Below, one piece after another: positions 56,583 through 64,000 of a stretch of DNA of 64,000 nt (positions are counted from its first letter, which is position 1; every line of letters starts with the position of its first letter). The DNA comes from Clostridia bacterium (GTDB taxonomy: Bacteria > Bacillota > Clostridia > Christensenellales > UBA1242), in assembly GCA_016297915.1 (NCBI GenBank), contig JAEDFU010000002.1:31798-95797 (forward strand). The letters are read 5' to 3'. The notes under the pieces are model-generated. The model was not told the origin of the DNA. It did no database searches and saw only the letters and a program-made list of their open reading frames with translations. The translations under genes and the position numbers were made by a program.

Positions 56583-59500
56583 ATGAGGTGCATTGTGGTA
56601 ATTTTGAAGAAAAATGGAAATAAAAAAATAAAAAATTATTTTGACTATACAAATGATAGTCCAGCAACCCTTAAGTACAAGAGGGGTATTTTGGCGAGTC
56701 TAAAATTAGACACTCCTTTGTTTTCGTGGCCAAAAGACAAACTAACTCTACTATCTATTATTAATACATATCTTGCAAATATCAAGCTAGCCAAGCTTAA
56801 TCCAAAAAGTGAAAATGGCATTTTGGATAACTTGATTGAGGCTGTTGATGGGATAATTGATAATATCAAAAAGGATTCTGCAGAGGGTGATAATAAAGCG
56901 ACTGACAAAGAGTCCGAGCAAGAGCCTGCAGAGGCTGACAAAAAGTCTTATGAGGAATCTAAGATAGCCGAGAACAAACCTGACGAAAGCGAGCCTCAAG
57001 AAGAGAGCTCAGAGGATACACAAGAAAGTGAGAGCCAAACTGATACAGACCAAAATTCTGAGCAAGAGTCAAATGATACTGACGAGGATATAACTAGTTT
57101 AACCCAAGAGGATGCTCCTGAGTATGTAGATGAGAGTGAGTATATTGATTTGCCTGACCAAATCTACGACATCGAGGATATTAGTGCCAAGATGCTTGGC
57201 AATATTGTGAGAATACTTAATTATAGATACAAGGCAATTCGTAAGATTAATGCTCTCAAAGAGAATCATGCGCCTGTTGATATGGTTGAGCCTGAGATCG
57301 AAAAGGTCGCTGTTTACAACATTGTTCTTGCTAAGTATTTGCCAATCCTCAACAAACAAAAAGTTTGTGACACAGCTACACTTAAGACTGCAACAACAAT
57401 TTTTGATGATGTTTGCACTGAAGGATACGAGGATGTCCCAACCGAAAAGAACATCGAAAGCGAAATCAAAAAGAACAAAGAGCAACAAGATTTTGATATC
57501 GTTGCTGCACTTAATTATGTGGGCATTAGTGTTGACAAAGACGAACTCGGAGTTTATATTGTCAAAAACACCAATAATGGCAATGGTATCAAGTACTATA
57601 TCGGCAAGCAAGAAAAATCTTTTGCTTTGTCCAAAAAAGCTTGTAACAAATTTTTGGATACATTCCTAAATCAGCCTATTGAGGTGCGTAAGTACATAAC
57701 CCCAGGACAAGTATTTATTGCATACATTAATGAGGCAGAAAAGAGTCTTGGAATCAACTCTCGTAGTGCAACCGAACTTAGTGATTTGTTTGGCACAATG
57801 AACAACAATCGTAATGCCAAGGCGTACTTTAAGGATGCAATCCGCAAGTATAGTCGTAATGCCGAGGAGTGGAAAAATTTCCAAAAAATCTTTGAGGCAG
57901 AATACTACTCCAACAAAGACAAAAAGGACGAGGGTTCAAATAGAATTCATATCAAGCAACAAGCCAAGAGACTTGTTATTGGCGATATGATGGAAGAGTT
58001 TTTGAACGATGGCGAAATCCTTACTCCTGAGCAACTAAATATTTCTGACTACCGAATTGGAGATATTTCTAGAGACTTTGGTCTAGATATTGATTTGGAC
58101 GAAATCAAGGTCAAAAAACTCCGAATTGAGCGAATTGAGGACAATGCATTTAGAATAATCAATGTATTACATTCTTCCGTTCAGGATATGCGTGCGTTTG
58201 TTCAGGATATTATTGATAATTATACTGTTGATTATTTGCGAAAAGAAAAGATTTTCCTTCTTCAACAAGACGATCAAAACGAGTATATAACCAAAAAGAA
58301 ACAATACGAGGATTTGATTGAAAAACTATCCTATGATAAGGCAAAAGATAGCCAACAACAAATCGCTTATTATCAATCTCAGATTGATGATATTACTCAA
58401 AAGATTGGCAGTATCGAGTATAGAGATGCCAAAGAGGATTTGATTAAGTCCAAAAACAACTTTAGAATTTTGCTATTGAACGCCAAGTCTCAAAAAGAGC
58501 TAGTTAAGTCCAGACTCAATGATGCTAAGGACAAGGCTAGTGTGAGCGGAACAAAACTTGGAATTGAAGAAAAACTCGAAATACTAAAAACTGCCCTCAC
58601 CGACGCTCCTGATATGAATTTTGCTTTTGACAAAGGCAAAGTTATGTACTATAGTCAAAAACCAAACGAAAAACCAGTTAAGCGTGAGGAAAAACTCTCC
58701 GAAGTTGACAAGATTATTGAGTCGACAGCCGCAAGAATAAGCGATGAGAGTCACCAAAAGATTTTGGAAGAAAACAAAATCCGTGAGGCACTCAAAAAAT
58801 CTCAAAAAGAAGAACGCATTAAGTCTGCAAATGCTTATATCAACGCTTATGGCAGTATTGTTGGCAATGCAGGCGGTGTGGGTGTTCTTAATAACTTGGG
58901 CGATAGTGGCGAATTTGCCAAATCCCCAACTTTTGCAAGAAATGTAGGAACTGTTGGCGGAGTATCTCCAATAATCCTTGGTCAAAACGACGAACTCCCA
59001 ACAAGAGAGATGTATGCCAAGGCAAGTAGGGGAAATGCTGGAACTGGGAATGGTGGTGCTGGTGGTGCTGGCAACGGCACATCAAACTCAGGTTTAGGCG
59101 GAAACGGTGCTGGCAACGGAGCTAATAACGCTGATGGCAAAGGTAATTCAAACACCGGTGCAGGTAATGTAAGTGGTTCAAATAATGCTGGTGGGGTTGC
59201 AGTTCAACCAACTCAAGTTATTCCAAATGCTATGCCTGGTGTAGTGGGCATGGGTGCTCCAACAGGGGTTATACCAGTTGCCCCAATGACATACATGATG
59301 CCAAATATGCAAATGCCAAGTATGGCACCAAGTGCACCAATGTACAATAGAGATTATCAAGCGTACGATGTGTTTAGCGATGGCATTGAGCCTTGCGTTA
59401 TTCCGTTTGTAGTGGGTTACGAAAACAAAGGTGTAACTCAGTACGGAAATGCACTCGAAAATTATGCAACATGCGATAGATACAAGTATTTGTTGTCTAC

Positions 59501-61871: not shown

Positions 61872-64000
61872 ATGTCAGATAAGATTAAACCAAATAATAT
61901 AATAAGCAAGATGTTCGGTGTATGGCGTGATGCACAGTCTAGTGCAATCCTAAATTCTACACTTTTGTCTTTGGGGGTTATGGGGCTTATTGATAGTACT
62001 CAAGTTAAGTTCCATGATGCTATTTTCAAGCCAAAAGATATGCTAGAGAGAATGTCAAGTGACTCAGTTGGCTCTCATGATAGAGTCAGTGACCCATTTG
62101 TTGGAGAAAAAGAACCAACCCTCAGAGAACTAGCGACAGGCACTCGAAAATACTCAAAACTAACATCTTGGGGACAAACTCACGCCAAAAGTATCGAAAA
62201 AATCACCAAAGCTGTTGATTACTTGAAAAATTGGAAAACAGTGGGCGGAGAAGCTAAGTTTGCAGGTATTGAGAATCTAAAGTTTTTGAAAGTAGAAAAC
62301 TTGCAAATGCTAGACTCCAAACAAATTAATTCTGTTTTGGATTTTTTGAGTGAGATATATGCTACTACTCAAAAGTACGACGCATTGAGACCAGATCGTG
62401 TAAAAGAAGGAAAGTCCTCAATCGAGTCGGCAAATAGAGTTGACCAGAAAAAAGCCTTTTTGGGCAGTTTTGATACTTACACAAGTATTCTTGAAAAAGT
62501 CGATACACAGATTTCCAAGGTTGACGATATCAAACACTTTGGAATAGATGCTTATGCGGATAGTTTATATAGGCTCGGCAAAGATCTAAATGCAACTGAG
62601 CAAATGGATGCAGAAGTTGTAAGCGCTCTTGACTTTATAGGAATTTCCCTCAAGAAAGACGAAAATGGCAAATGGGTAGTTGACCATGAGGCTACAAAAT
62701 TAAATAAGAATGGCATTGAGCTTGTTGATGACAAAGGCGATCCATATTACTTTAAACTTGGATACGAAAATCCTACAGACCCAATCCCATCGTTTTTGGA
62801 AAATTATCTAAACAAAAAACCAAATGAAAGAAACGGTCTTGTAATTACCGGACAAGGGATATTTGAACTATACAAGAGAGCGGCAAGCCCAGAGATGGGA
62901 ATAATTGATAAGCTCAAAAATATAAAAAATATTGGGGAGTTCAAACAAAAATCCGAGCAGTATGCCAAAACATATAGTCTTGACGGTGCTGAGTGGAAAT
63001 TATTTAGTATGACCCGAAGAGAAAAGGTTATTGACAATGCAACCAAACTTGCACTTGCAACTGTTTATATGAACATGTGTGCAGTTTCGACAGATGACAT
63101 TTTAGACCAAGATATGTCAGACGCATTAAGACTAAATCAATACACCAAGGGTGGGCTAGTTTGGCGAAGAGTAAATAGACTTTGCGATACTGCAACATAC
63201 TTTAAAAATTTGGCAAATGAACAAATCTCTAGTGACATAAGCAAAGATACATTCCTAAATATCTTGATGACAAATGACGAGTACGAAACCCAGCTAAACA
63301 ATTTTGAGGAAATCTTAAAAAATAGAGCTTTGACGCCGGAAGAAGAAAAAGCGTACGAAGATCTTCAAACTGCTAAGCAGACGCTTCAATTTGTAAGAAA
63401 CTTTGAAGTAACTGCTATAAACAAAATATTCGAAAGTTCGTTAAACAACGAAAATAGAGATAACGAACAACTCAAAAACGATATTTTAGGCTTTGTTGCT
63501 GAGTTTGGCAATTGTGAATTTTTGTCAGTAACTAGAGAGGGCTCGGAATTCAAATTAATCTTTGATCAATCAAAACTTCCAGACGGACTCAAAACTTATT
63601 CCGCACCATTTGAAGAAATTGCCAAAGACATAAATTCCAAACAATCAAGCCAAAACCAAGCAAAACCTCAAACCAATCCTACACAAACAGGAACAACAAA
63701 TACAAGTGGAATAAACTTTGATATAAAACTTCCATACTTGCAAGATATCGAAGCATTTAATTTGCTAATGCGAAGCGACAAAGTTGATGTGGTGACCCCA
63801 CTTGAAACAGCCGAAATCCTTGAGCGTTGCAAGTACTTATTAAATAACGGTCAAGAGAACGAACTCACACAAATGAGAGATGTTTTGAGAGCAAAGTTCC
63901 CTGGCAAAAAGATGACCGAAATATTTGAGATTTGCAAGTCAAGCGTTCAAGACCCAGCCAAAGCACAACAACTTGCAAATGACGGAATTGATATCTCATT
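61872..64000 (+). CDS. Large hypothetical protein, 5' part (more than 709 aa, runs off the right edge)
   Basis: Absent from the ORF track because there is no stop. Hand translation from ATG 61872 (SD aaggtgg) stays open to 64000: MSDKIKPNNIISKMFGVWRDAQSS...QQLANDGIDIS. Only short antisense ORFs were listed in this interval. Confidence 0.75.
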   Translation, partial: MSDKIKPNNIISKMFGVWRDAQSSAILNSTLLSLGVMGLIDSTQVKFHDAIFKPKDMLERMSSDSVGSHDRVSDPFVGEKEPTLRELATGTRKYSKLTSWGQTHAKSIEKITKAVDYLKNWKTVGGEAKFAGIENLKFLKVENLQMLDSKQINSVLDFLSEIYATTQKYDALRPDRVKEGKSSIESANRVDQKKAFLGSFDTYTSILEKVDTQISKVDDIKHFGIDAYADSLYRLGKDLNATEQMDAEVVSALDFIGISLKKDENGKWVVDHEATKLNKNGIELVDDKGDPYYFKLGYENPTDPIPSFLENYLNKKPNERNGLVITGQGIFELYKRAASPEMGIIDKLKNIKNIGEFKQKSEQYAKTYSLDGAEWKLFSMTRREKVIDNATKLALATVYMNMCAVSTDDILDQDMSDALRLNQYTKGGLVWRRVNRLCDTATYFKNLANEQISSDISKDTFLNILMTNDEYETQLNNFEEILKNRALTPEEEKAYEDLQTAKQTLQFVRNFEVTAINKIFESSLNNENRDNEQLKNDILGFVAEFGNCEFLSVTREGSEFKLIFDQSKLPDGLKTYSAPFEEIAKDINSKQSSQNQAKPQTNPTQTGTTNTSGINFDIKLPYLQDIEAFNLLMRSDKVDVVTPLETAEILERCKYLLNNGQENELTQMRDVLRAKFPGKKMTEIFEICKSSVQDPAKAQQLANDGIDIS

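Follow-up and report, generated by a model that had tools for sequence, protein, structure and literature searches.

The stretch of DNA analysed here, 64,000 nucleotides (nt) from a Clostridia bacterium (contig JAEDFU010000002.1, forward-strand positions 31,798 to 95,797; hereafter the window), carries the genes of a type IV secretion system (T4SS), followed by two giant open reading frames, ORF1 and ORF2. The locus raises the question of what two such proteins do behind a secretion machine. A preliminary description took them for distal cargo of the T4SS gene cluster, and offered as roles a translocated substrate, a DNA-mimic or anti-restriction protein, or a surface scaffold. Our analysis shows that the T4SS block is a vertically inherited core-chromosome locus of an uncultured gut Clostridia clade, and ORF1 and ORF2 are very probably integral, selected members of this non-mobile locus. 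Judged from sequence comparison, the find appears to be a domesticated monoderm T4SS with two orphan giant proteins and one new module shared between them, whose function we infer.

A transcription unit behind the T4SS genes

ORF1 and ORF2 form a transcription unit of their own, directly downstream of the T4SS genes. Its elements in the window are as follows.

56413 to 56442, + strand: intrinsic terminator after virB4, with a stem of 12 base pairs, a 6-nt loop and a T-run
56477 to 56505, + strand: probable promoter of ORF1 and ORF2, with -35 TTGTAA (56477-82), a 17-nt spacer and an extended -10 TGgTAAACT (56497-56505)
56595 to 61835, + strand: ORF1, a giant soluble orphan protein of about 1746 amino acids (aa)
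61858 to 61864, + strand: ribosome-binding site AAGGTGG of ORF2, 7 nt upstream of the ATG
61872 to 64000, + strand: ORF2 (partial), from ATG 61872, 709 codons, open to the window end

As a mechanical ORF call, ORF1 is the open frame 56583..61835 on the + strand, with 1750 codons from an ATG at 56583 to the stop TAG at 61833-61835. The preliminary description gave this extent; the frame holds, but the start is likely not the one at 56583. GTG 56595 is the likelier start, giving about 1746 aa, because the GAGG at 56585-56588, 6 nt upstream, is conserved in relatives and the homologues begin MAxxxKNG. The start of ORF1 lies about 190 nt downstream of the VirB4 gene, and a gap of 36 nt separates ORF1 from ORF2. 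Both ORFs are real and intact as first described, with 1750 codons in the one, 709 open codons in the other and AAGGTGG in front of the latter. ORF2 in the window is cut by the window end; its orthologues have 700-1700 aa, mostly about 1100-1260.

ORF1 is not a chance frame, because it has 43 full-length homologue clusters (1590-1810 aa, 42-99% identity) and a ratio of non-synonymous to synonymous substitution rates (dN/dS) of 0.06-0.11. By this measure, ORF1 is under strong purifying selection. The preliminary description had allowed for the ORFs being pseudogenised in close relatives, and no such case was seen among these clusters.

The terminator at 56413-56442 is the top terminator-like site within 49-64 kb, and relatives have a hairpin and a T-run of different sequence at the same place after virB4. 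The promoter scores 8/12, under the 9/12 threshold of the consensus scan, and shuffled sequence has promoter-like sites at least as often as the region does. We take the site as real because its block is nearly invariant in four relatives (L001, L005, L006 and L007) amid diverged intergenic DNA. This conservation is good evidence for a promoter at 56477-56505, and the earlier suggestion that the two genes have their own promoter after the virB4 terminator is borne out.

A vertically inherited locus at a fixed chromosomal site

The T4SS genes of the window, a minimal set of Mollicutes/MPF_FATA-like type, lie upstream of ORF1. TM stands for transmembrane.

46887 to 48953, - strand: VirD4-type coupling protein (T4CP; Pfam T4SS-DNA_transf at 3.5e-53; NCBIfam CD1115-family VirD4 at 304 bits, cutoff 250)
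49541 to 49906 and 50135 to 50605, + strand: two VirB2/T4SS_pilin-like small membrane proteins (PF18895 at 2.5e-6 and 4e-8), two TM helices each
49854 to 50135, + strand: 93-aa TTG-start ORF between the pilin genes, overlapping the end of the first, which may encode a third small T4SS component
51035 to 53689, + strand: VirB6-like polytopic membrane protein of 884 aa (NCBIfam MMCAP2_0566 / Mbov_0396 at 87 and 62 bits, just under the cutoffs)
53721 to 56405, + strand: VirB4 ATPase (NCBIfam Mbov_0397 equivalog at 599.7 bits, cutoff 590)

The VirD4 gene is transcribed divergently from the pilin, VirB6-like and VirB4 genes. Both pilin-like proteins have Mbov_0395-family matches just under the cutoff in NCBIfam, and the VirB6-like protein has about 8 TM segments together with large hypervariable hydrophilic regions.

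Homologues of ORF1 occur in 11 species-representative metagenome-assembled genomes. These carry the labels Clostridia, Clostridiales or "Christensenella" and were obtained from human, roe-deer and other gut samples; the window's own sequence recurs in many pig-gut metagenomes. The gene order is identical at all loci whose length allows a judgement: thyX, virD4 (- strand), pilins, VirB6-like, VirB4, ORF1, ORF2, an ORF of ~80 aa, a TM2/zinc-ribbon protein, mnmA, arsR, a P-type ATPase and gapdh (- strand). This order holds even where ORF1 is only 42% identical to that of the window, and the flanks (thyX upstream; mnmA, arsR, P-type ATPase and gapdh downstream) are the same with ORF1 at 42-79% identity. 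VirB4 lies upstream of ORF1 and ORF2 wherever the contig reaches that far, and VirD4, VirB4, the VirB6-like protein and the pilins are at the same locus in all relatives. The co-occurrence with VirB4 and VirD4, which the preliminary description had proposed to check, is thus strict in the contexts examined.

The divergence of VirB4 follows that of the chromosome. Its identity across six genomes (78-91%) tracks the identity of MnmA (76-87%) with r = 0.75, and its dN/dS is that of this housekeeping protein. No relative of ORF1 was found on the 72,556 plasmids of PLSDB (tblastn) or in IMG/VR. The closest full-length plasmid-borne VirB4s are Mbov_0397 proteins of Spiroplasma and Mycoplasma at ~25% identity, and the ORF1/ORF2 family is found only in the clade carrying this T4SS. 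Scans against Pfam and NCBIfam covered nearly all ORFs of at least 120 aa in the 64 kb, and the relatives' flanks to 10 kb where annotated; among these there was no relaxase, integrase or transposase. Otherwise the window consists of ordinary chromosome and encodes DnaD/DnaI-like replication proteins, FolD, a polysaccharide cluster, CorA, PheST and two P-type ATPases.

It is scarcely credible that ORF1 and ORF2 are cargo of an integrative and conjugative element (ICE), for example a DNA-mimic or anti-restriction (polyvalent-type) protein moved with DNA, because every relative has the locus at the same place in the chromosome, with housekeeping genes on either side. Both ORFs belong to it without exception, and the view of them as distal cargo of a mobile T4SS has to be given up. 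What had suggested it is the acidic block of 106 aa in ORF1, with a net charge of -33, along with the giant size and the position distal to the T4SS genes. A "large polyvalent protein associated domain" protein of BFVD also came up at rank 7, but with E 0.77 and a probability of 0.07. Apart from the fixed position with housekeeping flanks and the scans for relaxase, integrase and transposase in the window and annotated flanks, this role is opposed by the lack of relatives on plasmids or viral contigs and of ArdA, ArdC, LPD, methylase and helicase domains in Pfam, NCBIfam and PHROGs. The acidic block turns out to be a non-conserved low-complexity linker, which measures 19-88 aa among orthologues, is not conserved in sequence and is almost absent in L013. 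With no Pfam or PHROG match either, the DNA-mimic or anti-restriction role finds no support.

Large polyvalent proteins of conjugative elements and phages, with their LPD Pfam families, were reportedly described by Iyer et al. in 2017. Like them, ORF1 and ORF2 are giant multi-region proteins with low-complexity linkers beside conjugation-type genes. They differ in that they have no LPD, ArdC-N, methylase, helicase or peptidase domain in Pfam, and the locus is not on a mobile element.

ORF1, ORF2 and their shared module

The regions of ORF1 and the matching part of ORF2 are listed below, with residues counted from ATG 56583 for ORF1. Predicted structure is from AlphaFold2, with its predicted local distance difference test score (pLDDT).

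aa ~5-95 of ORF1: conserved N-terminus
56874 to 57191, + strand: acidic D/E/S/Q low-complexity linker of ORF1, aa 98-203, 38% D+E, net charge -33
57120 to 58022, + strand: ORF1 copy of the shared N-terminal module, aa ~180-480, predicted as helices and a 4-stranded β-meander, pLDDT mostly 80-94
58023 to 58823, + strand: long-helix (coiled-coil-like) region of ORF1 with a small β-meander, aa 481-747, predicted helices of 45-73 residues
58824 to 58886, + strand: near-invariant small-residue motif NAYINAYGSIVGNAGGVG of ORF1, aa 748-768, with a GxxxGxxxG pattern and (nearly) invariant alignment columns
58890 to 59354, + strand: central low-complexity linker of ORF1, aa 770-924, Gly/Asn-rich, then Pro/Met-rich
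59355 to 61832, + strand: mostly α-helical, conserved C-terminal half of ORF1 (about 830 aa), aa 925-1750, with many invariant residues
62238 to 63224, + strand: ORF2 copy of the shared N-terminal module, aa ~123-451

ORF1 is well conserved outside its two low-complexity spacers. The central linker is kept in all orthologues at 101-212 aa with drifting composition; in the window, aa 816-875 are 59% G+N and aa 876-921 are 42% P+M. These measurements, and the 38% D+E of the acidic block, agree with the composition noted in the preliminary description. The NAYINAYGSIVGNAGGVG motif stands where the helical region meets the low-complexity spacer. It is among the best-conserved stretches of ORF1, and it is too weakly hydrophobic for a TM score.

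AlphaFold2 models were made for ORF1 only, as two segments with a 44-sequence alignment. The model of aa 175-775 has a mean pLDDT of 81 and consists of helices of 45-73 residues and two small β-meanders. The model of aa 925-1750 is mostly α-helical, with a mean pLDDT of 70.

The N-terminal regions of the two proteins are related to each other. ORF1 aa ~180-480 is homologous to ORF2 aa ~123-451 (BLASTP 2e-7; hhalign 98.5%, E 2.6e-15), and the module, roughly 270 aa in size, has the invariant positions D-x-[DE]-[IV]-V-x-A-L-x-x-x-G and F-L-x-x-[YF]-L-N-x-P-x-x-x-R-(x)n-T. We reject homology between ORF1 and ORF2 outside this module, where the remaining hhalign matches have a probability below 10%. 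Across 1.84 billion representative proteins, an exhaustive HMMER search with the module profile returned no more than 34 matches at E<=1e-3. Almost all of them are either fragments or full-length proteins of ORF1-like (~1600-1850 aa) or ORF2-like (~880-1650 aa) type, the full-length ones having the module close to the N-terminus. Two divergent matches that we looked up have contexts consistent with the same T4SS locus. A 3846-aa protein among the matches was set aside, since it has seven short repeated matches and looks spurious. An hmmsearch profile of the ORF1 module alone was too insensitive and missed most ORF2 copies, and a word-index search with the module alignment returned fragments only. 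This module, the hypervariability of ORF2 and the strong conservation of ORF1 were missed in the preliminary description.

Its statement that neither protein has a recognisable domain or catalytic motif agrees with our searches. Pfam, NCBIfam, PHROGs and PADLOC gave no meaningful match for ORF1, the window ORF2 or nine other ORF2 variants. In NCBIfam at E<=0.1 there was nothing for ORF1 and one irrelevant acylphosphatase match of 12.7 bits for ORF2, with none for the full-length ORF2 of L001; Mbov_0398-0400 and relaxase/primase families, looked for in the same database, did not appear. PDB sequences, searched with single sequences and with profiles from the ORF1 and module alignments, yielded no informative match. 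No Walker A or HUH motif was found in any ORF1 orthologue. Across 12 ORF1 and 14 ORF2 orthologues there was no TM helix (no Kyte-Doolittle window >=1.6), signal peptide or LPXTG, so the two proteins are without TM helix and signal peptide as first described.

The structure comparison that had been proposed was run on the ORF1 segments and gave no fold match. In Foldseek, with both models against PDB and the N-terminal half against BFVD, the best hits (E 0.2-0.8) were generic helical or coiled-coil proteins, and the C-terminal half had no match with E<0.4 in PDB. On these models, the predicted folds of ORF1 seem to be without known relatives within PDB and BFVD.

ORF2 is, from comparison of its orthologues, a hypervariable giant soluble orphan protein. 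Between the window and L001, identity is 95% for VirB4, 79% for ORF1, 41.5% for the VirB6-like protein and 28.6% for ORF2. At the protein level, ORF2 changes about ten times faster than VirB4. The dN/dS values are 0.02-0.03 for VirB4 and 0.026 for MnmA, compared with 0.11-0.32 for ORF2 and 0.31-0.37 for the VirB6-like protein. In a set of eight close ORF2 variants, identity is 94-99% over the first ~600 aa and 45-89% in the C-terminal half.

The pair L001 and L005 illustrates this variation. Their VirB4 proteins are 99.3% identical, yet the ORF2 patch at aa ~700-950 is replaced. In the VirB6-like proteins of the same pair (L001 4379-7009, L005 4368-7010), the hydrophilic regions at aa ~200-300 and ~450-690 are replaced (12-54% identity), and the flanking TM blocks are 92-98% identical. 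The ORF1 differences are confined to the spacers. The pattern in the VirB6-like protein suggests recombinational cassette exchange. Synonymous divergence (dS) is several-fold higher in its replaced regions.

At its extreme C-terminus, ORF2 stays acidic and Met-containing despite the divergence, with endings such as DDGMGAM, EDGMGI, DEGMDM and NEGM. A Met lies within the last 7 residues in 17 of 21 representatives with at most 50% mutual identity, where 15% would be expected (binomial P about 5e-11, kinship ignored). At least three acidic residues are present in the last 12 in 20 of the 21, compared with an internal rate of 34%.

We considered ORF2 as a polymorphic toxin and rejected this, as a toxin or hydrolase domain was looked for in eight divergent variants and none was recognised. 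A gene of ~80 aa (MAKNPNVYKFEIIERII...) follows ORF2 in all relatives, beyond the window (L001 19470-19709, with equivalents in L002-L017). It is very highly conserved, has no Pfam family and may encode a small partner or chaperone of the locus. It does not look like an immunity gene, since it is highly conserved and does not co-vary with ORF2. An extra, unrelated small acidic ORF lies between ORF2 and the ~80-aa gene in L001 and L005 (113 aa) and in L006 (106 aa).

These data also bear on the idea that ORF1 and ORF2 are large coiled-coil proteins unrelated to secretion (cytoskeletal, envelope-organising or chromosome-associated) and mere neighbours of the T4SS, which we regard as very unlikely. 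The own promoter and terminator would fit it, as would the long helices of the ORF1 N-terminal half, whose only Foldseek neighbours, at E~1, are coiled-coil or spectrin-like proteins of a generic kind. Housekeeping synteny is also equally conserved here, so that adjacency alone is no proof of function. On the other hand, nearly all of the 34 module matches fall in these two families with the examined contexts consistent with the locus, the family is confined to the T4SS-carrying clade, and ORF2 and the VirB6-like loops are hypervariable in the same genome pair.

Export or display as a candidate role

From their sequence and context, ORF1 and ORF2 are the best candidates for what this T4SS exports or displays. 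We propose export or display because they are, together with the ~80-aa protein, the only conserved proteins of the locus that are neither membrane proteins nor ATPases, and because the locus retains a coupling protein, the component that recruits substrates. As expected for substrates of a T4SS, the two genes stand alongside those of a VirD4-type coupling protein and a complete channel core. Of the roles offered earlier, the translocated substrate or surface scaffold stays the most plausible class. We put it at somewhat short of an even chance that ORF1 and ORF2 are dedicated cargo or extracellular parts of a relaxase-less T4SS, exported or displayed by it.

In such a scheme, both proteins would be recruited through VirD4 and exported via the VirB4/VirB6 channel, and the shared N-terminal module would be their common docking or assembly domain. 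ORF1 could be a conserved elongated scaffold, made of long helices, a flexible Gly/Asn/Pro/Met spacer and a constrained α-helical C-terminal half. ORF2 could be a diversifying, strain-specific partner that contacts a variable outside target, such as another cell or a receptor under phage or immune pressure, and whose evolution parallels that of the hypervariable hydrophilic loops in the VirB6-like protein. We speculate on exposure to a variable outside partner (target-cell receptors, phages, host immunity) because the cassette hypervariability of ORF2 parallels that of the VirB6-like loops. The tail of ORF2 may be a recognition signal, since it is conserved on an otherwise fast-diverging protein. 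The complete picture would be a core, vertically inherited, relaxase-free Gram-positive T4SS with VirB2-like pilins, in which ORF1 is a stalk-like scaffold and ORF2 a polymorphic contact or effector protein acting via docking module and acidic tail. It is tentative, and as a whole we lean against it. If true, a monoderm Firmicute would have a genuine T4SS dedicated to protein translocation or to contact-dependent action.

Several points weigh against export or display. The evidence for export of ORF1 and ORF2 is indirect, and with 1750 and ~1250 aa the proteins are very large to cross a minimal T4SS unfolded. The statistic for the ORF2 tail is uncorrected for shared ancestry, the similar ENM-x ending of ORF1 is missing from its most divergent orthologues, and we know of no Gram-positive or monoderm T4SS secretion signal with which the tail could be compared. 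At the locus, no peptidoglycan hydrolase or VirB8-like gene was recognised in Pfam and NCBIfam, and a relaxase could be encoded elsewhere in the genomes, as the scans covered the window and flanks. The model of the ORF1 C-terminal half is only moderate, and the Foldseek comparison covered PDB and BFVD with models of ORF1 only. In favour of the locus being transcribed in vivo there is weak evidence: in three pig-gut metatranscriptome runs, contigs match the pilin, VirB6-like, VirB4, ORF1 and ORF2 genes in part at >=99%, but these are assembled contigs and DNA carry-over is possible.

We consider it unlikely that ORF1 and ORF2 are cytoplasmic accessory or scaffold subunits, for example a coupling-complex or ATPase-platform adaptor in a role like that of DotL-associated adaptors, with the module binding VirD4 or VirB4. 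Such a role would suit soluble proteins with no known export signal that strictly co-occur with VirB4 and VirD4, and the constraint on ORF1 is like that of a machine part. Recruitment of subunits whose ancestry is unknown has been described for expanded T4SSs (PMC12857230). Yet an adaptor gives no obvious reason for strain-specific cassettes in ORF2 that parallel the VirB6-like loops. The separate promoter behind a strong terminator, with no co-transcription with the machine genes, does not favour it, and the long flexible spacer and elongated helices are more reminiscent of an element that spans or extends.

For export or display, parallels exist in well-known systems. The T4SS effector families of Xanthomonas (X-Tfe, with XVIPCD) and Bartonella (BID) have a common translocation or docking domain. 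The likeness to ORF1 and ORF2 is in logic only: one homologous module with otherwise variable regions, and VirD4 present. In contrast, the module of the window is N-terminal, has ~270 aa and shows no sequence or fold similarity to XVIPCD or BID; those hosts are diderm, and translocation here is only inferred. PrgB-type LPXTG adhesins are, like ORF1 and ORF2, large, associated with a Gram-positive T4SS and possibly surface-exposed, but ORF1 and ORF2 have no signal peptide, LPXTG or adhesin domain.

In ancestry, the T4SS of the window appears closest to the conjugation module of Mollicutes ICEs and plasmids. As in Mycoplasma and Spiroplasma, the core order is pilin-like protein, polytopic TM protein, VirB4; the window VirB4 passes the Mbov_0397 cutoff, and the pilins and TM protein fall just under those of Mbov_0395 and Mbov_0396/MMCAP2_0566. 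The host differs, being of a Clostridia lineage that uses the standard genetic code, and the locus has a fixed chromosomal position, where no DDE transposase was found. In ICEA, a large essential gene, CDS19, follows VirB4 and is grouped with the CDS5-CDS19 cluster of proteins with predicted TM domains (PMC6030558). ORF1 and ORF2 occupy the CDS19 position, immediately downstream of an Mbov_0397-family VirB4. Unlike CDS19 and Mbov_0398-0400, they have no family match and no TM helix. The Spiroplasma plasmid has the same order of pilin, TM protein and VirB4, but no giant ORF after VirB4.

By analogy, the closest biological parallel seems to be the T4SS of Patescibacteria, the candidate phyla radiation (CPR). 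This is a chromosomal, relaxase-less, MPF_FATA-derived T4SS with PF18895 pilins, for which exaptation to a function other than conjugation has been proposed (Quinonero-Coronel et al. 2025, doi 10.1101/2025.01.22.634366). It is cited there as essential for epibiotic growth in Southlakia. Both systems are monoderm and chromosomal, with VirB4, VirB6, PF18895/VirB2-like pilins and no nearby relaxase. They belong to different phyla, and VirD4 adjoins the locus here, whereas it is mostly not near virB4 in CPR. The TrsD, PrgI and peptidase/lysozyme neighbours were not recognised in the Clostridia locus, and no module-bearing CPR protein was found among the 1.84 billion proteins.

Gram-positive type IV secretion is known almost only as conjugation machinery on mobile elements. 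VirB2 and VirB5 are not found in Gram-positive T4SSs, with Patescibacteria as the sole exception, and whether any Gram-positive T4SS is dedicated to effector translocation has long been an open question (PMC12857230). The Clostridia locus bears on both points, through its VirB2-like pilins and through possible dedicated effector translocation, and it offers concrete, testable candidate substrates or structural parts. The hypervariability of ORF2 and the VirB6-like protein suggests strain-specific cell-cell or host interaction in an abundant uncultured gut lineage. What is new are two orphan families and one module of ~270 aa without detectable fold relatives.

The genes directly upstream of the T4SS (31810-46605) are dense in nucleotide-salvage and deoxynucleotide functions, with a TrxB gene also in this stretch.

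31810 to 32715, - strand: RihC-like nucleoside hydrolase
32850 to 34025: ComEC-type MBL-domain-only protein
35191 to 37554: NrdD
38620 to 39303, - strand: NrdG
43895 to 44638: PnuC-like transporter
44628 to 45317: Tmk/dNK
45442 to 46605: ThyX homologue of 387 aa, with the Thy1 domain at aa 27-199 only

This neighbourhood (RihC, NrdDG, PnuC-like, Tmk/dNK, ThyX and the MBL-only protein) could be taken to mean that ORF1 and/or ORF2 are DNA pilot or processing proteins for transfer, release or uptake of DNA without a canonical relaxase, in a T4SS for chromosomal DNA exchange or acquisition. We hold this distinctly unlikely. The retained VirD4 coupling protein and a VirB4 of the Mollicutes conjugation family are in keeping with DNA handling, and the uneven dS and cassette replacement amount to frequent recombination between strains. 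The gene neighbourhood is circumstantial, though, and there was no family match of HUH, Rep_trans, primase, nuclease, helicase or DNA-binding type, nor do the ORF1 models show a fold of these kinds. The acidic block would repel DNA, and the hypervariability of ORF2 is unexpected for a DNA-processing enzyme.

Some minor features of the window remain to be described. At the pilin position, relatives have three small genes (in L012, of 139, 110 and 108 aa). VirB4 has 2-3 predicted TM helices at aa 12-72, and this N-terminal TM segment is possibly a fused VirB3-like anchor. The ThyX homologue has a C-terminal extension of ~190 aa with no family match in Pfam and NCBIfam, and thyX is upstream of virD4 in L015 too. 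Rfam gave no family at gathering score across the 64 kb, and there was no tRNA, rRNA or riboswitch. The polysaccharide cluster is the following.

6572 to 22157: surface-polysaccharide biosynthesis cluster, ~16 kb

It encodes Polysacc_synt_2, DegT aminotransferase, sugar transferase, ATP-grasp, GT1/GT2/GT4 glycosyltransferases, EpsG, a Wzx-like flippase and a Wzy_C ligase. The GC content falls to 29% at 14-18 kb, compared with ~36% in other parts of the window.

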